DNA of 64,000 nt from the NCBI GenBank assembly GCA_017540815.1, contig JAFYAI010000016.1, forward strand, positions 666-64,665, written 5' to 3'. Positions 53,008-60,810 of this stretch are shown here, in pieces; the first letter of the stretch is position 1; each line of letters begins with the position of its first letter. The notes under the pieces were generated by a model. That model was not told the DNA's origin. It was given only the letters and a program-made list of their open reading frames with translations, and did not search any database. Made by a program: the position numbers and the translations under genes. Source of the stretch: Spirochaetales bacterium. Lineage in GTDB: Bacteria; Spirochaetota; GWE2-31-10; MWDO01.

Positions 53008-53796
53008 TCATTCCAATATCCCGTCTGTATCATCTTCCGCCAACGGCAACTTAGACAAATAATCCTTCAGTTTATTCGCCATAGGCAAAAATGTTGCCGC
53101 TGTAATGCTTCCGGAAAATATACCGCCTACGATAGGGATAATCTTGCTTATTGTTTTGCCGAAACTCTGCTTGGTCAGACTAATCCCTAACCATTTTGCA
53201 ATCTGTTTCGCGATATTATAGACCCCCATTTTCGACAATGCCATTCTCGGAATTCTTTTGGCTGCCTGCTCCGCCAAACTGACAGAAATCTTGCTTATTG
53301 CAGCCGCTGCTCCTTTTGCCCCTGACATAACACCGATAAACAAAGTCAGCAATCCCAAAAATTCATCGCTCGGCTGTTCTTCATCGAAACTCGGCCAGCC
53401 ATACAAAAAAGCAAGTTTCTGAGTGACAACAATAACATTATAATAAAATTGTGCAAGATCAGCAGGGATCGTTCCTGCCATCCACCAGCCGCCCGGTAAA
53501 CCTGTAGCAAATGAAATTCCGGTCACAATGATTGTATGATTTTTGATTACTGATTTGGCAATCTTATCAATATCCTCTTTTTTGGCGGGAGAGTTTTTTA
53601 TCCCGTTTCTAATGATTTCCTGAACATCATCTTCTTTATAATACTTTATAAGTTCTTTTCTTAAGAAAGCACTTCTGTTTACCTTAGCTCCCGGTATTTT
53701 CAAAGCCGTAGACAAAACCCCGTTCCATACAGTCACCGCTTTTTCATCATTGATGTTATAATCTTCATTTAATTCTAATTCTTCTTCGTTGTTCAT
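53008..53796 (-). CDS. EcsC-like protein
   Basis: Central Gly-rich TGISFATGLPGGWWMAGTIPADL region and overall size resemble the EcsC family. This is a from-memory family call. Confidence 0.5.
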   Translation of the reverse strand: MNNEEELELNEDYNINDEKAVTVWNGVLSTALKIPGAKVNRSAFLRKELIKYYKEDDVQEIIRNGIKNSPAKKEDIDKIAKSVIKNHTIIVTGISFATGLPGGWWMAGTIPADLAQFYYNVIVVTQKLAFLYGWPSFDEEQPSDEFLGLLTLFIGVMSGAKGAAAAISKISVSLAEQAAKRIPRMALSKMGVYNIAKQIAKWLGISLTKQSFGKTISKIIPIVGGIFSGSITAATFLPMANKLKDYLSKLPLAEDDTDGILE

Positions 53797-53799
53797 TAG

Positions 53800-54363
53800 T
53801 TACTCCTCTGATTTAATAAATTTCCATTCAATTTGATATTGTTTGCCAGTCAACTCACCTATCTGCCGAACATAATTCTCTATAATCTTCATTGCTCGTG
53901 TCTGAGCATTCTGCATTAGAGAATGATTCTCCTGTAATGTTGTTATGCAATTATTACGAGCTTTTTCAAGTGCATCTACTTGATCTTTTGAAGATATACG
54001 AGCTTTAAACAGACCTTCAATGAAACCAGGCATTTCTGACAAAACTTCCATAGAAGGTATAGATATTTTAGGCTCTCCGATAATCTTTGCATTTGGAATA
54101 GTGACTATCACTTTTGATTTATTAACTTCAATATTAACAGATGAAATATCTATTCCAAGTTTGACAGTTGACTCGTACTCAATCCACTGCTGTAAACCGT
54201 TTTTCTCAATCGTGACAAGATTACGATAATAACATTCCTGTGTTGCCAGATCGCAAACCTGTCGTATATCTATTAAATTCGGACTTATATCCGACTGTTG
54301 TTTACATGATATAAGCAAAACAAAAAAAACGCAAAATAATATAGTCCTTCTTATATATATCAT
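53800..54363 (-). CDS. Lipoprotein, paralog B of a tandem pair. Possibly DUF4230-like.
   Basis: Signal plus lipobox LISC. Shares VIVTIPNAKI / GIDISSVNIEV blocks with the upstream paralog. Confidence 0.5.
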   Translation of the reverse strand: MIYIRRTILFCVFFVLLISCKQQSDISPNLIDIRQVCDLATQECYYRNLVTIEKNGLQQWIEYESTVKLGIDISSVNIEVNKSKVIVTIPNAKIIGEPKISIPSMEVLSEMPGFIEGLFKARISSKDQVDALEKARNNCITTLQENHSLMQNAQTRAMKIIENYVRQIGELTGKQYQIEWKFIKSEE

Positions 54364-54977
54364 AATGACTCTCCTTCTACAACAAAGTTATACGATGAAC
54401 TCTTTTTAAATGGCATGCACAATGCCTTAATAGTCTCTTTGGCATTTTCATTTGCCAAATATAGTATTTTCTGATTATTTATCACTTTAGAACGCAGATC
54501 ATTTCGACAAATACTGAGATGTTTCTTAATATTCGGGTTTTTCTTATATTTATTCTTGAAATACAGGAACTTCATCGTTTCTGCTTCAGTACTGACATTA
54601 TATTCAAGAATTTTGGCATTAGGGACATCTACATAAATTGTATTTCCTTCAACTTGAACCGTAGGTGGTTCATCAATACCAGCTCTGACAATTCCCCTAT
54701 ATGAAATTGCATATCGGCGATCCTTTTCTGTTTCAGTAGGTACATCAGTCTCATCAGCAGACACATCTACAGCGATGTCTTCCCAATAATCATCAATATG
54801 TGGTGTTACAATTACATAACTATTGTATACATATTCTATAGTGTGTAATTCTTTCACATTTAAAACTTTCTCCAATGTTAGTTTAGTTGTTATCGAATAA
54901 TTTTTGCATCCGATTAAACAAAACAGAAACATTAATACAATAATAAATTTGATACTTATCGATTTTTGTCTATTCAT
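54360..54977 (-). CDS. Lipoprotein, paralog A of the tandem pair
   Basis: Signal plus lipobox LIGC. TIYVDVPNAKILEYNVS / GIVRAGIDEPPTVQVEGN blocks. 4-bp overlap with paralog B. Confidence 0.5.
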   Translation of the reverse strand: MNRQKSISIKFIIVLMFLFCLIGCKNYSITTKLTLEKVLNVKELHTIEYVYNSYVIVTPHIDDYWEDIAVDVSADETDVPTETEKDRRYAISYRGIVRAGIDEPPTVQVEGNTIYVDVPNAKILEYNVSTEAETMKFLYFKNKYKKNPNIKKHLSICRNDLRSKVINNQKILYLANENAKETIKALCMPFKKSSSYNFVVEGESL

Positions 54978-54991
54978 ATTCTACCCCCATT

Positions 54992-55426
54992 TTACTCATC
55001 CTCACCTATATGTGTCATCTTCAACTTTTTATCACATTCGTCGATTGTTTCATCACAATAGCGAATCTCTTTCAAAATATTTCTAATATCATCATCAATA
55101 ATCAGATCCGTTTGATTGGGATTATTATTTAGAATCTCAAACATCATTTCTCCCAACATTTCCATAGCCTTTTGCCTTTTGGTTTCTGCATTTTTCTTCT
55201 CAATTCTAACAGGAACAACCTTTGCTTCATTTCCAAGCCATTTCAATCCTTTCTTACCGGCTTCCCCAGCTTTTTTTCCTATTTCTTTAGCTTTTTCTCC
55301 GGCTTTCTTTGCTCCTTCTTTGAACTTTTCTTTCATTTCAGATTCCTGTTTCTCAGGCTCTTTCTTCTCCTTTCCTAAGAAAGGAAACCACCCTTTCTTT
55401 TCTTCCTTCATTCCTTCTTTACCCAT
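54992..55426 (-). CDS. Lys/Glu-rich small protein
   Basis: Low-complexity KEEKK/GKKAGE repeats. No TM helix. Confidence 0.4.
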   Translation of the reverse strand: MGKEGMKEEKKGWFPFLGKEKKEPEKQESEMKEKFKEGAKKAGEKAKEIGKKAGEAGKKGLKWLGNEAKVVPVRIEKKNAETKRQKAMEMLGEMMFEILNNNPNQTDLIIDDDIRNILKEIRYCDETIDECDKKLKMTHIGEDE

Positions 55427-55465
55427 AATAGTATCTCCTTATTTATAATTTATAATTGTTCATTA

Positions 55466-55975
55466 TCACTGCCGTCTCTTCCTCTTATCCATCTCCATCA
55501 CACGCCATTCCGTTTCGGTAAGACCATACACATCGGGAAGCTCAGGATTAGCAGGATGCCATTTTTCTTTATGCTTTATCCTAACCGCAAATTCTTTAAA
55601 CTCATCTTTAATATCTCCATCAGGCATGTAAGATTCTTTACTCCAACGATGAAAATCCATAGCAATATTGCCCACATAAAACGGCTCAAAACGATGTAAG
55701 TCCCCCAAAATCTTTATCGCATCCATAGGTTCATAGCAAAGCAATCTGATATGATTTCCGATACCTTCCTGCGAATCACGAAATATCAGCTCCAATACGA
55801 CTGCATCATCATCAGCATACTCACCGTCATCATAATGATAACATAATGCAGTCTCTATATTGCTGACAATTTCATGCGTTAGATATTCTGTATCCAAACC
55901 ATCAAGAACATCTGCTCCATTGAGAAAAAACAAACTTTCATTCTGTTCTTCCCAATCATATTTATTAAGCCTCAT
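55466..55975 (-). CDS. Acidic hypothetical protein, 169 aa
   Basis: First gene of the AT-rich five-gene cassette. No motif recognised. Confidence 0.4.
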   Translation of the reverse strand: MRLNKYDWEEQNESLFFLNGADVLDGLDTEYLTHEIVSNIETALCYHYDDGEYADDDAVVLELIFRDSQEGIGNHIRLLCYEPMDAIKILGDLHRFEPFYVGNIAMDFHRWSKESYMPDGDIKDEFKEFAVRIKHKEKWHPANPELPDVYGLTETEWRVMEMDKRKRRQ

Positions 55976-56158
55976 ATTTTTACCTCGCTTTCAAATAATA
56001 CTTCAACCTTCTATTATAACACACATTCACCATTCAAATGTCGTTTTCAAAGCGACAAATGCACAAAAAAAGCTCTTGACTTGTTTAGAGTCAACAATTT
56101 GTCAAATAAAAAAAAGATTAATATTGTTTATTGCCAATTTTTATGATATAATAAAATT

Positions 56159-56470
56159 ATGGATATAACTCTGATACAATCTTTATGTAAACAACGCAAG
56201 ATAAAATGGTCTTTGCATTCATCCGAAAAAATGGCAGAGCGAGGAATAATGCGTTCCGATGTAATTAATTGTATAGAGTATGGTGAAATCATCAAAGATT
56301 ATCCTGATGATACTCCAAATCCAAGTTATCTGATATTCGGTCAAGATTTACGAAGTAAGATTCTGCATACAGTTGTCGGATATAGTAAAGAAACCTTGTT
56401 TATAATAACAGCTTATTATCCGGACACAAGTATATTTGAATCGGATTTACGAACAAGAAAAAAGAGGTGA
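56159..56470 (+). CDS. DUF4258-family protein (toxin-like)
   Basis: HSSEKMAERGI…GEIIKDYPDD…LHTVVGY…IITAYYPD matches the DUF4258 signature. Confidence 0.7.
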   Translation: MDITLIQSLCKQRKIKWSLHSSEKMAERGIMRSDVINCIEYGEIIKDYPDDTPNPSYLIFGQDLRSKILHTVVGYSKETLFIITAYYPDTSIFESDLRTRKKR

Positions 56471-56703
56471 ATATGTGCTTTTACTGCAAAAACGAAAAAA
56501 CTAAAAATTCCATCACAACATATATGGTAGACTTAAAAGACTGCATTATCATTATAAAAAATGTTCCGTGTGAAGAATGTACTCAATGTGGCGAGAAATA
56601 TATCAGTGACGAAGTAATGGAACGAATCGAAAAAATTATTCGACAGGTTCGTTCAATTGCAGGAGAAGTTTTTGTCACAGATTATACGAAAAAAATCGCA
56701 TAA
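56467..56703 (+). CDS. YgiT-type (MqsA N-terminal-like) zinc-finger protein
   Basis: CFYCKNEK…CEECTQCGEKY four-Cys zinc ribbon. ATGA overlap with the DUF4258 gene. Confidence 0.65.
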   Translation: MNMCFYCKNEKTKNSITTYMVDLKDCIIIIKNVPCEECTQCGEKYISDEVMERIEKIIRQVRSIAGEVFVTDYTKKIA

Positions 56704-56739
56704 GAAAAAAGAGATTTCCTTTTAGGAAATCTCTTTCCC

Positions 56740-59235
56740 TTACACTATCCCGGTAACCTTATAATCTTTTGCTTCAACTGCTGTTTTAAGCACATCGTCA
56801 GCGACATCTTTGCTCAACTCGACAATCGCCGTACCTGCAGTATGGCTTGGCGTTGCAAGTGTTACTCCGTCGATAGCCTCCAATGCTTTTTTGACAGTGG
56901 CTTCACAGTGTCCGCACATCATCCCTTCGATCTTAAGTGTTTTTGTCATAGTAGAAGTCTCCTTATTGTCTGTTAGATTTTTATCAGAGTTATCATCAGG
57001 TGATGATTTTCCATTTTTGTTAAATTTCAGCAGGTTAAGCCGCAGTGCATTGCTGACTACACAGAAACTCGACAGGCTCATTGCTGCCGCACCAAATGCC
57101 GGAGTAAGCACAATGCCGAACAGCGGATACAATGCCCCTGCCGCCAACGGAATGCCGATAATATTATAGATAAATGCCCAGAAGAGATTCTCATATATAT
57201 TGCGAAGCACGGCACGCCCGATCCTGACAGCTGCTGCGACATCAGTCAGCGAATCACGCACCAGCACAACATCTGCGGCATCTTTGGCAACATCCGTTCC
57301 GGCACCGATTGCAGCACCGACATCGGCAGCGGTTAAGGCAACGGCATCATTGATACCATCACCGACCATCATCACACGACCTGTCTGCTGTATTTCCGCC
57401 ACGATCTTGGCTTTCTGATCCGGCAGCACTTTGCCGAATATCTTATCTGCCTTGATCATATTACCGACTTTATCGGCAGCAGCCTGATTGTCACCTGACA
57501 GCAGACATACACTTAGTCCCATACTGTGCATACGCGATACTGCGGCGATACTGTCAGGTTTCAGCTCATCCGAGAATGTGATAATACCTATCGGCTGATC
57601 TCCAACAGCGACTGCGATAAGTGTCTGCCCGGCAGTGCTTATTTTGCTCAATGTCTCTTCTAATGCTGTCTTTGCATTGTCGGCTGTTATCTCCGCCAAG
57701 ATCATATCTGCACTGCCGACAGTTATCGGAGTTCCATTCTGAGAGACAGCTCTAATCCCATGCCCTGCGGTCTCTGTGATATTGCTGACATCCTGAGCCG
57801 TCACATTCTGAGCTTCGGCATAACGGCAGACAGCCACCGCCAGCGGATGAGAACTGCTCCGCTCCAGAGAGTAAGCCGCCTGCACAATTGTGAGGCTATC
57901 CGCATCCCCGATCGGATAAATGCCGGTAATCTCAGGCTGCCCCTTCGTCACAGTGCCTGTCTTATCAAGTATCACATTCCGCACGCGACCTGTCAGTTCC
58001 AGACTCTCCGCCGTCTTGAACAGGATGTTGTGACGAGCCGCAACGCCGCTGCCGACCATGATAGCAACAGGTGTCGCCAGACCCAATGCACACGGGCAAC
58101 TGATAACCAGCACGCATATACCGCGAGCCAATGCAAAGCCGACAGTCTGACCTGCGAAGAGCCATATCAGAGCGGTTATAATCGCAATCATCGTCACAAT
58201 AGGCACGAAGATGCCGCTCACCCTGTCAGCGACTCTGGCAATCGGAGCTTTGGCAGCTGCGGCATCTCCTACCATAGCTATAATCTTGGACAATGCAGTA
58301 TCACTGCCGACTTTGTCGGCACGAATATGGATCACGCCATTGAGATTGATCGTTCCGGTATAAACCTGTGCCCCCTCGGACTTATTCACAGGCATACTCT
58401 CGCCGGTCAAGGCAGACTCGTTGATGCTTGTCATTCCGTGAATGACAACCCCGTCTGCACTGACATTCTCACCGGGGCGGATGACGATCTCATCACCGAC
58501 AGACAGTTCCTCTATCGGAATAATCAGTTCCACACCGTTCCTGATAACAGACGCATTCTGCGGAGTCAGGCTCGCCAACGCACGAAGTGCATCCGTAGTG
58601 CGGCCTTTTGCAATCGCTTCAAGCAATTTGCCGACAGTGATAAGCACGAGTATCATACCGGCAGACTCGAAATAATAATCCGATGACGAGAGATGCTTGT
58701 CCATTGACAGCATTATCAGAATGACAGTGCTGTAGATATATGACACTCCAGAGCCCAACGCCACAAGAGTGTCCATATTGGGAGACAAGTGCATAATGCC
58801 TTTTATGCCATTGATGAAAAATCTGCGGTTGATAATCAAAATAATCCCGGATAATATCATCTGGATAATGCCAAGCGTCACTGGATAATCTTTGAGACCA
58901 AAGTCAGGAGCTCCGAACATCAGTCCCATCCCGAAATACATCAGTACCACCAAAACCACTCCGGAACTGATAAGACGCATAACAGCATTACGCACTTCGT
59001 CGGATTGAGTCGATTGTGTCTCATCTTGCTTCTTTGCAGAAGGCACAGCCGCATCATAACCTGCCTTGCGCACAGCCTGTATTACCCTGTCCGGCGGCAC
59101 ATCACCATCGACTGTCATGCTGTTAGTCAGCAAATTAACAGAGCAGTCTGTTACCCCATCCACTTTTGAGACCGCCTTCTGCACTCTGGCCTGACAGGCG
59201 GCACAACTCATACCCATTACATTATATTTAATCAT
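56740..59235 (-). CDS. copA: Copper-translocating P1B-type ATPase CopA with an N-terminal HMA domain and an extra C-terminal HMA (CopZ-like) domain fused in frame
   Basis: GMSCAACQ, CPC (SCPCALGLATP), DKTGT, GDGINDA, C-terminal MMCGHCEATVKKALE. Confidence 0.92.
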   Translation of the reverse strand: MIKYNVMGMSCAACQARVQKAVSKVDGVTDCSVNLLTNSMTVDGDVPPDRVIQAVRKAGYDAAVPSAKKQDETQSTQSDEVRNAVMRLISSGVVLVVLMYFGMGLMFGAPDFGLKDYPVTLGIIQMILSGIILIINRRFFINGIKGIMHLSPNMDTLVALGSGVSYIYSTVILIMLSMDKHLSSSDYYFESAGMILVLITVGKLLEAIAKGRTTDALRALASLTPQNASVIRNGVELIIPIEELSVGDEIVIRPGENVSADGVVIHGMTSINESALTGESMPVNKSEGAQVYTGTINLNGVIHIRADKVGSDTALSKIIAMVGDAAAAKAPIARVADRVSGIFVPIVTMIAIITALIWLFAGQTVGFALARGICVLVISCPCALGLATPVAIMVGSGVAARHNILFKTAESLELTGRVRNVILDKTGTVTKGQPEITGIYPIGDADSLTIVQAAYSLERSSSHPLAVAVCRYAEAQNVTAQDVSNITETAGHGIRAVSQNGTPITVGSADMILAEITADNAKTALEETLSKISTAGQTLIAVAVGDQPIGIITFSDELKPDSIAAVSRMHSMGLSVCLLSGDNQAAADKVGNMIKADKIFGKVLPDQKAKIVAEIQQTGRVMMVGDGINDAVALTAADVGAAIGAGTDVAKDAADVVLVRDSLTDVAAAVRIGRAVLRNIYENLFWAFIYNIIGIPLAAGALYPLFGIVLTPAFGAAAMSLSSFCVVSNALRLNLLKFNKNGKSSPDDNSDKNLTDNKETSTMTKTLKIEGMMCGHCEATVKKALEAIDGVTLATPSHTAGTAIVELSKDVADDVLKTAVEAKDYKVTGIV

Positions 59236-59351
59236 AGACTGCTCCTTTCAACAGCAGACTTTTTTTGCAGGCATCCGTGCCTGCCGCCTGCATTAGCACT
59301 TCCGTGTGCGTCAACAGCGGCACAAGACATACCCATTACATTATACTTCAT
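59232..59351 (-). CDS. Candidate 39-codon leader ORF whose first 12 codons duplicate the copA N-terminus. Its stop overlaps the copA start (ATGA).
   Basis: Minus-strand translation MKYNVMGMSCAAVDAHGSANAGGRHGCLQKKSAVERSSL*. copA begins MIKYNVMGMSCAAC. Confidence 0.35.
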   Translation of the reverse strand: MKYNVMGMSCAAVDAHGSANAGGRHGCLQKKSAVERSSL

Positions 59352-59393
59352 TGTTTTACTCCACTAACTTTTTATGATATATTTTCCCCTGTA

Positions 59394-59430
59394 AAAAATC
59401 CGAGGTTCGTCAGGACCTCGGATTTTTTTG
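59394..59430. terminator. Terminator after the trpB2-like gene
   Basis: aaaaaatccgaggttcgtcaggacctcggattttttt. Confidence 0.7.
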
Positions 59431-59442
59431 TCTTATTATATT

Positions 59443-60810
59443 TTACATCTTCGGCAACGCATCGAATCCTTTCTGCAGATCCGCATCAGTCGGGATATAA
59501 TCCGTCATTGTGCCGTTGTTGTATGCTTCATAAGCCTTGAGGTCAAAGTAACCTGTGCCTGTCAATCCGATAAGGATCGTCTTAGCCTCCCCGGTCTCTT
59601 TGCACTTCATCGCTTCATCGATAGCGACTTTGATAGCGTGGCTGCTCTCAGGTGCAGGCAGGATGCCTTCCACTCTTGCGAATGTAACAGCCGCCTTAAA
59701 TACATCAGTCTGCACTGCGGATCGTGCTTCCATCAGACCGTCATCAAATAATTGTGACAGAACCGAACTCATACCGTGGTATCGCAGACCGCCTGCATGA
59801 TTAGCCGATGGGATAAAGTCAGCACCCAAAGTGTACATCTTAGCCAGCGGACAAACGCGACCTGTATCACAGAAGTCATACGCATACTTACCGCGTGTCA
59901 GACTCGGACAGCTGGCCGGCTCTACAGCGATGATCTGATAATCTTTAATTCCGCGGATCTTATCAGTCATAAACGGAGCGATCAATCCGCCGAGGTTAGA
60001 CCCGCCTCCGGCACATCCAACGACTATATCCGGTGAGATACCGTATTTATCCATCGCTGCTTTAGCTTCCAGACCAATGACTGACTGGTGGAGCAGGACC
60101 TGACTGAGCACACTGCCCAGCACATATCTGTAGCCTTCGGACTTAACAGCTGTCTCAACAGCTTCGGAGATCGCACAGCCCAAACTGCCGGTAGTTCCCG
60201 GATGCTCAGACAGGATCTGTCGTCCTACATCCGTTGTATCAGACGGCGACGGAGTTACGGAAGCACCATAAGTCCTCATAACTTCACGGCGGAACGGTTT
60301 CTGCTCATAAGAGCACTTAACCATATAGACTTTGCAGTCCAATCCGAAATACGAGCAAGCCATCGACAATGCTGTTCCCCACTGACCAGCACCGGTCTCT
60401 GTGGTGACACCTTTCAGTCCCTGCTTCTTAGCATAATATGCCTGTGCGATAGCAGAGTTGAGTTTGTGGCTGCCGCTTGTGTTGTTGCCTTCAAATTTGT
60501 AATAGATCTTAGCCGGCGTGCCTAATTTCTTCTCCAAGAAGTATGCCCTCACAAGCGGTGACGGACGGTACATTTTGTAGAAATCGAGTATCTCCTGCGG
60601 AATCGTAATAAACTCATCGGTATTATTCAACTCCTGCTTCACTAACTCGTCGCAGAATACGCCTCGCAACTCATCGAATGTCATCTCCTTATGAGTGCCG
60701 GGATTCAGCAGCGGTGCCGGTTTGTTCTTCATAACAGCTCGCATGTTCAGCCAAGCTGTCGGCAACTCCTTTTCTTCCAGATAGATTTTGTACGGAATAT
60801 TTTTGTCCAT
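59443..60810 (-). CDS. trpB: Tryptophan synthase beta chain-like PLP enzyme (TrpB2-type, stand-alone)
   Basis: GSHKLNSA…ETGAGQWGTALSMACSYFGLDCKVYM matches the TrpB PLP-lysine region. 455 aa with an N-terminal extension typical of TrpB2. Confidence 0.85.
   Translation of the reverse strand: MDKNIPYKIYLEEKELPTAWLNMRAVMKNKPAPLLNPGTHKEMTFDELRGVFCDELVKQELNNTDEFITIPQEILDFYKMYRPSPLVRAYFLEKKLGTPAKIYYKFEGNNTSGSHKLNSAIAQAYYAKKQGLKGVTTETGAGQWGTALSMACSYFGLDCKVYMVKCSYEQKPFRREVMRTYGASVTPSPSDTTDVGRQILSEHPGTTGSLGCAISEAVETAVKSEGYRYVLGSVLSQVLLHQSVIGLEAKAAMDKYGISPDIVVGCAGGGSNLGGLIAPFMTDKIRGIKDYQIIAVEPASCPSLTRGKYAYDFCDTGRVCPLAKMYTLGADFIPSANHAGGLRYHGMSSVLSQLFDDGLMEARSAVQTDVFKAAVTFARVEGILPAPESSHAIKVAIDEAMKCKETGEAKTILIGLTGTGYFDLKAYEAYNNGTMTDYIPTDADLQKGFDALPKM

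Follow-up and report, generated by a model that had tools for sequence, protein, structure and literature searches.

A conserved Shine-Dalgarno sequence and start codon inside copA point to a nested CopZ-like copper chaperone

The copA gene on a 64,000 nucleotide (nt) stretch of DNA from a Spirochaetales bacterium (contig JAFYAI010000016.1; the whole stretch is referred to here as the window) encodes a Cu(I)-exporting ATPase and carries near its 3' end a Shine-Dalgarno (SD) sequence followed by an in-frame ATG at the boundary of a C-terminal HMA metal-binding domain (MBD). Comparison of this site across 80 sequences suggests, with a probability that we place near three in four, that internal initiation at the SD-ATG is real and selected for, yielding a free CopZ-like protein in addition to a pump that bears a tethered copy of the same domain. 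It is also probable, and held by us a little less firmly, that hundreds of Clostridia from gut and rumen, along with some Spirochaetales, this organism included, obtain two proteins from one gene in this manner, with the ratio of tethered to free chaperone copies hard-wired by two ribosome-binding sites (RBSs). The C-terminal, internal-initiation form is what would be new here; in-frame internal initiation, the CopA(Z) system of E. coli and copA-copZ operons were already known.

A putative start site nested in copA

The gene and its parts were assigned as follows, where lengths are given in amino acids (aa), ORF denotes open reading frame, TM transmembrane and AF2 an AlphaFold2 model.

56740..59235, minus strand: copA, a P1B-1 type Cu(I)-exporting ATPase of 831 aa with an N-terminal and a C-terminal HMA (ORF list, Pfam, NCBIfam)
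59053..59226, minus strand: N-terminal HMA metal-binding domain, aa 4-61, with a CAAC motif (Pfam)
56950..57030, minus strand: linker, aa 736-762, between the last TM helix and the C-terminal HMA, predicted disordered, A-rich and of variable length among orthologues (AF2 and the 80 sequences)
56958..56964, minus strand: internal SD AAGGAGA, within the codons Lys-Glu-Thr (sequence, duplex energy)
56947..56949, minus strand: internal in-frame ATG (Met763), with which beta-strand 1 of the C-terminal HMA begins (sequence, AF2)
56740..56949, minus strand: CopZ-like ORF nested in-frame in copA, 69 codons plus stop, with a GMMCGHC motif (Pfam, AF2)
56700..56738, minus strand: intrinsic terminator, a hairpin and U-run directly 3' of the copA stop (fold -24.7 kcal/mol, z = -6.8)

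The copA product has the Pfam domain order HMA (aa 4-61), E1-E2_ATPase, HAD hydrolase and a second, C-terminal HMA, with the P-type ATPase core matching PF00122 (E=1.8e-57) and PF00702 (E=1.4e-26) and the phosphorylation motif DKTGT present as LDKTGTVT. The translation also contains SCPCALGLATP, FIYNIIGIP and AAMSLSSF, all invariant in the orthologue alignment, and we take CPC (TM4), YN (TM5) and MxxSS (TM6) to be the Cu(I) transmembrane site signature of the P1B-1 subfamily. The NCBIfam model TIGR01511 (ATPase-IB1_Cu) scored 536.4 bits against a cut-off of 397, and the product fell below the E. coli-type equivalog NF007952 (560 vs a cut-off of 1316). The motif of the N-terminal HMA was CAAC in 69 of 72 orthologues and that of the C-terminal HMA was CxHC in all 80 sequences.

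The C-terminal HMA extends from Met763 to Val831 and is thus 69 codons long, not 67 as stated in the first-pass annotation, which had rightly called the domain complete: taken alone, the last 69 aa matched HMA profile positions 1-61 of 62 (Pfam E=2e-12). In an AF2 model built from 36 homologues (mean predicted local distance difference test score, pLDDT, of 75.8), the last TM helix ends at residue 735, residues 741-761 have pLDDT <50, and residues 763-830 form a complete beta-alpha-beta-beta-alpha-beta fold (block-mean pLDDT ~76-89). Beta-strand 1 (763-770) begins at the internal Met763, so that in the model a product of internal initiation would be the whole domain with nothing extra. As a single HMA of ~70 aa with MxCxxC, the 69-aa frame has the domain architecture of CopZ according to both Pfam and AF2.

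On the minus strand the end of the linker and the start read ...GAC AAT AAG GAG ACT TCT ACT ATG ACA AAA ACA..., where AAGGAGA sits within the codons N-K-E-T-S-T at a spacer of 8 nt from the ATG (9 nt when counted from the GGAG core); these coordinates confirmed the earlier placement of an internal ATG at 56949 behind AAGGAGA. The duplex of this SD with the anti-SD was predicted at -8.2 kcal/mol, the same as for the annotated copA start, and both the SD and the ATG were unpaired in the predicted fold of the window. The layout, an in-frame start that coincides with a domain boundary and follows an SD by 5-10 nt, is that of an internal site of the ArcB-C type. Given its start-like duplex, its unpaired fold and a distance that is fixed in 79 other species, the putative internal SD-ATG is more than a chance occurrence.

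Conservation and constraint at the putative internal start

The junction set consisted of 79 loci and the window, giving 80 sequences from different species. The start codon, located 11 (once 12) positions ahead of the first Cys, was ATG in 80/80 and was almost always preceded at a fixed distance by (A)AGGAGG(A). Spacing of the SD core was 8 nt for GGAGG in 41 sequences, 9 nt for GGAG in 18 and 8 nt for GAGG in 10; GGAG began at -13 in 59 of the 80 and was nearly absent elsewhere between -90 and +60. A comparison of orthologues had been named in the first-pass annotation as a test of its proposal, and the internal SD and ATG were indeed kept in the orthologues that bear the fusion.

Predicted pairing of the internal SD to the 16S 3' end averaged -9.5 kcal/mol over the 80 sequences, in comparison to -2.7 kcal/mol for the remaining in-frame Met codons in these genes (n=2311; Mann-Whitney p=4e-46) and -8.6 kcal/mol for their annotated N-terminal starts. 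Judged by predicted pairing and averaged over the set, the internal SD equals or exceeds the 5' SD in strength.

Codon choice around the site was strongly biased. At residue -5, where K, E, S, M, Q, R and T all occur, the codon had G as its last base in nearly every case. Where Lys occupied this position it was encoded by AAG in 44/48 cases (p=1e-7), Glu at -4 was encoded by GAG in 70/72 in comparison to 51% gene-wide (p=4e-18), and Thr at +2 was encoded by ACA in 35/45 (78% vs 22% gene-wide, p=5e-15). Synonymous recoding of the seven upstream codons according to the codon usage of each gene gave a mean energy of -6.5 +/- 0.3 kcal/mol in comparison to the observed -9.5 kcal/mol. Constraint near the putative internal start acts on nucleotides rather than on amino acids.

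The linker around the site is highly divergent. Its length ranged from 20 to 53 aa across the 80 sequences, 78 of the 80 30-mers upstream of the internal ATG were distinct, and pairwise nucleotide identity was 0.37 at -46..-17 in comparison to 0.68 at -16..-8. Folding energy in 40-nt segments showed that the minimum of structure lay exactly at the ATG, with -1.2 kcal/mol at this position versus -6 to -10 kcal/mol in the flanks. The start and SD are conserved at a site where synonymous variation is reduced and RNA structure is locally low, as is the case for an ArcB-C type site. The invariance of the ATG, the fixed SD distance and the synonymous constraint, all maintained despite the divergence of the linker, argue that the internal start has been kept by selection.

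Only one of the 120 close homologues (P0023) lacked the Met, and in its place had GTG behind a perfect AAGGAGGTGA. As independent evidence this GTG counts weakly, since any one-step change from Met to Val yields GTG. Among nine relatives with tandem C-terminal HMAs (2-4 domains), five (P0073, P0122, P0123, P0124 and P0133) carried a Met at the aligned start position, or beside it, on the last HMA only, preceded by K/E-rich codons in four of these five; P0121, P0127 and P0147 break this last-domain pattern. The possibility that the Met is a structural residue was rejected, as inner HMAs of the tandem arrays were mostly without Met at the aligned start and the residue is therefore not needed for the HMA fold. 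In orthologues the residue before the internal Met was often T, N, E or A, so that a peptide that starts at the N-terminus of the predicted short product, such as (M)TKTMKIEGMMCGHCEAR, would not be one made by trypsin.

Origin of the fusion and competing explanations

Both csoR-copA-copZ and copAZ are established operons in which CopZ is a separate protein (PMC10233261). A tblastn search of plasmids with the last 125 aa of the copA product matched the end of copA and an annotated copZ in one piece in 99 Staphylococcus and 2 Listeria records. The S. haemolyticus plasmid pBNF01A (L106) has csoR, copA (..2893) and copZ (2927..), an L. monocytogenes record (L107) has csoR, copA (..2899) and copZ (2912..), and in both copZ is in the copA frame. 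The Listeria junction (L107 2890..2915) reads TCA TAG GAG GAA TAT AAC ATG, where the copA stop TAG is itself part of the copZ SD (TAGGAGG), and the Staphylococcus junction (L106 2885..2930) consists of TAA, then GGAGGTGA, 5 nt and the TTG start of copZ. The consensus of the fused genes, AAG GAG GAA NNN NNN ATG, has the geometry of the Listeria junction with a sense codon replacing the stop. Because the Listeria TAG lies inside the SD and copZ is in the copA frame, a single T-to-A change would fuse the two genes and keep the SD; in Staphylococcus too, where copZ shares the copA frame, one base change would be enough to join them.

The Listeria and Staphylococcus operons resemble the copA described here in gene order, in a chaperone encoded in the copA frame, in an SD 5-9 nt before the start and in the CxHC motif. 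They differ in that copA terminates there at a stop (TAG or TAA) that precedes the SD or lies within it, to give two annotated genes, whereas here AAG stands in its place and the pump continues into the chaperone. The C-terminal domain encoded by the window copA was 51% identical to annotated Listeria CopZ (55.5 bits), in comparison to 31.6 bits over 25 aligned aa for its own N-terminal HMA. CxHC also occurs in S. aureus CopZ (6ff2) and CAAC in the MBDs of B. subtilis CopA, and csoR (PF02583) abuts copA upstream in many orthologous loci. Judged by these comparisons, copA here is a copA-copZ fusion whose junction is homologous to the copA/copZ junctions of Listeria and Staphylococcus.

Four other HMA ORFs were found within +/-3 kb of copA in the 79 loci (L009, L075, a membrane-anchored one in L048 and an HMA-like motif in L077), and none of these was a free copZ of ~70 aa; no second HMA ORF was present elsewhere in the 64-kb window. 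The extra HMA proteins of ~125-137 aa beside copA (L048 400..781, L082 782..1159, L009 3768..4179 and L075 188..575) are not CopZ but another copper protein; the one in L048 bears a membrane anchor at its N-terminus and a stretch rich in Cys.

We propose that the fusion would have arisen from an ancestral csoR-copA-copZ operon, in which, as in Bacilli, the copA stop was closely followed by a separate SD and start for copZ. A change of this stop to a sense codon would let the pump read through a flexible linker of 20-53 aa into the chaperone domain, with the copZ RBS and ATG retained inside the ORF by selection. Ribosomes starting at the 5' ATG would then produce CopA with a tethered C-terminal HMA, and ribosomes loading on the unstructured, A-rich internal SD-ATG would produce a free, soluble CopZ-like Cu(I) chaperone of 69 aa. 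No conserved internal promoter for a copZ transcript was found at the 80 loci (promoter-like sites in 5/80 in comparison to 3% of background windows), so that both products would come from one mRNA; this mRNA is likely CsoR-controlled in most orthologues, and both products would be co-induced in a ratio set by the two starts. Since the internal site is predicted to be at least equal to the 5' site in strength and to lie in open RNA, the free form could outnumber the pump. The short product would presumably act as a chaperone, and the tethered copy may serve locally as an acceptor or have a regulatory role, as has been discussed for the C-terminal MBD (C-MBD) of A. fulgidus CopA (AfCopA). The first-pass annotation had raised such a free CopZ-like protein, made by internal initiation beside the full-length fusion, and SD and ATG conservation, synonymous constraint, pairing, the structure minimum and junction homology all speak for it, on evidence that is comparative throughout.

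Several points weigh against this mechanism. Initiation at the internal ATG and its short product are predictions from sequence comparison. Elongating ribosomes arriving from upstream could occlude the internal site. The 69-aa sequence did not reach the curated NCBIfam models for CopZ (CopZ_AFE_1862, 52.1 vs 85; chaper_CopZ_Bs, 46.8 vs 91; chaper_CopZ_Eh, 34.4 vs 95), the distant relatives P0247, P0121 and P0127 are without Met or SD, and the window copA has no adjacent csoR, unlike many orthologous loci. For the set of 80, the best tblastn matches that ran continuously were taken, which in part accounts for the frame being open in every locus, and the sequences are related and not phylogenetically independent, though the linker is near saturation.

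The SD and ATG might instead be an inert relic of the copZ RBS, in which case the full-length fusion alone would be made and its C-terminal HMA would be a tethered regulatory MBD like the AfCopA C-MBD. This is the null expectation right after a fusion, given a junction homologous to copA/copZ junctions, and it accords with the short product being a predicted one and with cis-acting C-terminal MBDs, which are known (AfCopA; references in PMC7558416 and PMC11970713). We consider it unlikely, since a relic should decay, yet a linker of such variable length at 37% nucleotide identity holds the ATG in every sequence with the GGAG distance exact. Constrained synonymous sites (GAG at -4, ACA at +2) and low RNA structure centred on the ATG likewise speak against decay, as does the fact that the single Met loss in 120 close homologues is the GTG behind a perfect SD.

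Naturally split copA and copZ genes in close relatives were considered as well. Public catalogues hold hundreds of '69-70 aa HMA proteins', which inflate the apparent counts of free-standing CopZ. When traced to DNA, such entries of 69-70 aa were 3' ends of fused copA genes called from the internal ATG, and were rejected as split genes: the 69-aa calls lay at contig ends (L081, L087-89, L099, L101-103), across N-gaps in scaffolds (L090, L091, L093-95, L098, L100) or after an upstream frameshift (L086, L096). The exception was one gut species with the order csoR, 125-aa HMA protein and copA (L082-85 and L092), which carries frame-breaking indels in the linker that are possibly assembly errors. 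These variants, ~30-110 nt before the internal ATG, comprise an A11 run with +1 and two deletions of ~19-22 nt, and the 69-aa ORF is identical in all. They may be real differences between strains, or slippage by which pump and chaperone become uncoupled, or else assembly error in low-complexity A-runs.

This species bears on a further reading, in which the free chaperone would be the sole product that matters, read-through would be the nearly neutral result of stop loss inside the SD and the tether would be functionless. Its frame-breaking variants with an unchanged 69-aa ORF would fit such a reading, as would the TAG within the Listeria SD, where one substitution joins the genes with the SD kept. 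However, the reading frame through the linker is intact in many species even though indels are numerous, a pattern that favours selection on the fusion, albeit in a biased sample; the other free-standing 69-aa proteins that were traced to DNA proved to be artefacts, and the indels in A-runs may be errors of assembly. We regard a functionless tether as improbable. A role of the SD-like motif as an elongation pause site for insertion of the last TM hairpin or for upstream domain folding, with a structural Met, is the least likely explanation, for although the motif lies ~27 codons past the last TM helix, a plausible position for a co-translational pause, and its strong anti-SD complementarity is real, pausing leaves unexplained why an ATG invariably follows 8-9 nt downstream, why the start region is A-rich and unstructured and why +2 is biased towards ACA, inner tandem HMAs fold without a Met at the aligned start, and SD-induced pausing in vivo is disputed.

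Related systems, distribution and genomic context

E. coli CopA(Z) produces pump and chaperone from one gene via programmed -1 ribosomal frameshifting (Meydan 2017 and Drees 2017, as cited in PMC10187127 and PMC7558416). In common with it, the copA gene here is predicted to give a pump and a free chaperone of ~70 aa identical to a pump MBD, with co-regulation built in. Unlike here, where a C-terminal domain would be released by internal initiation, the E. coli chaperone is the N-terminal MBD1 and results from a frameshift and premature stop. The E. coli-type slippery heptamer CCCAAAG was absent from the window copA, which has a single N-terminal HMA, and this gene is not a member of the CopA(Z) frameshift system. 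A search of the region around copA gave no Rfam match at E<=1.

In-frame internal initiation sites were found by Ribo-RET for ArcB-C and in infB, clpB and mrcB, and ArcB-C was verified by blot and profiling (10.1101/520783). ArcB-C shares with the site in copA an in-frame start and SD placed exactly where a membrane protein passes into its C-terminal domain, giving a diffusible copy of this domain, together with conservation and constrained synonymous sites. The copA site differs in that it is a prediction from DNA sequence, in its origin as the start of a formerly separate gene and in a conservation that is far stronger. A. fulgidus CopA also has an HMA after the last TM helix of a Cu(I) P1B-ATPase that bears an N-terminal MBD; in the literature this HMA is treated as a cis-acting domain, the organism has a separate CopZ and no internal start has been described. 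In full-text literature searches, neither internal initiation within copA nor this fusion was found to have been reported.

If internal initiation is true, copA of this type would represent a second and mechanistically different route to pump and chaperone from one gene, independent of the E. coli frameshift and reached via gene fusion. The evolutionary path is unusually clear, with a sense codon taking the place of a stop that, in the two-gene operon, lay at the copZ SD or within it. The site would also be among the most strongly conserved in-frame internal starts outside E. coli, in abundant gut Clostridia (Roseburia, Ruminococcus, Fusicatenibacter and relatives of Faecalibacterium), and annotation would be missing copZ in genomes with the fused gene, which appear to be chaperone-less. 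In the RefSeq records examined, the fused gene was a single ATPase coding sequence with no separate copZ entry. Such genes offer a natural system in which to compare a tethered with a free metal-binding domain of a P1B-ATPase.

A C-terminal MBD on CopA had been described as uncommon in the first-pass annotation, and this view was contradicted by our survey. The 120 best homologues (50-55% identity, 825-936 aa), mostly from metagenome-assembled genomes (MAGs) of Clostridia, all span the query fully and have the same C-terminal domain. A scan of one genome per species returned at least 600 pattern matches, of which at least 588 were confirmed to have the C-terminal domain, mostly in gut Clostridia. 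The C-terminal HMA on CopA is widespread in this clade and not rare. The best 80 loci came from Lachnospiraceae, Oscillospiraceae, Ruminococcus, Roseburia, Fusicatenibacter and relatives of Faecalibacterium, and included two Spirochaetales, one Synergistaceae and one Senegalimassilia. Culturable species with the fused gene include Roseburia faecis (JCM 17581), Ruminococcus albus (strain 7) and Fusicatenibacter saccharivorans. The protein closest to the window CopA, at 99% identity, is from a Spirochaetales MAG (L104) whose contig has flanks in common with the window.

Upstream of copA, one further feature was recorded.

59232..59351, minus strand: a 39-codon upstream ORF (MKYNVMGMSCAAVDAHGSANAGGRHGCLQKKSAVERSSL, followed by a stop) directly before copA (sequence)

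The first ~12 codons of this upstream ORF copy the N-terminus of copA with the second Cys lost, its TGA overlaps the copA ATG (ATGA), and it has a weak SD of its own (-5.9 kcal/mol). It is kept in the same-species MAG L104 with synonymous changes only, and folding of the region of the leader and upstream ORF showed no unusual structure (z = -0.5). The ORF may have arisen by partial duplication, or may serve as a leader whose translation is coupled to that of copA, and is context to the main finding rather than part of it. No CsoR-type ATACC..GGGTAT operator was seen in the copA leader (59236..59442). The next gene upstream (59443..60810, minus strand) encodes a TrpB-like enzyme dependent on pyridoxal phosphate (PF00291) and has its own hairpin terminator at 59393-59428.

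On the other side of copA, a DUF4258 / YokU-like pair of overlapping ORFs (56159..56703, plus strand), a putative toxin-antitoxin system, converges on the copA terminator, and the same pair also flanks copA in the Spirochaetales MAG contig L104. GC content rises from 0.31-0.34 downstream of copA (53600..56600) to 0.45-0.54 across copA and the PF00291 gene (56800..60600). This step, together with Clostridia-like homologues of a gene in a probable spirochaete, suggests horizontal acquisition.

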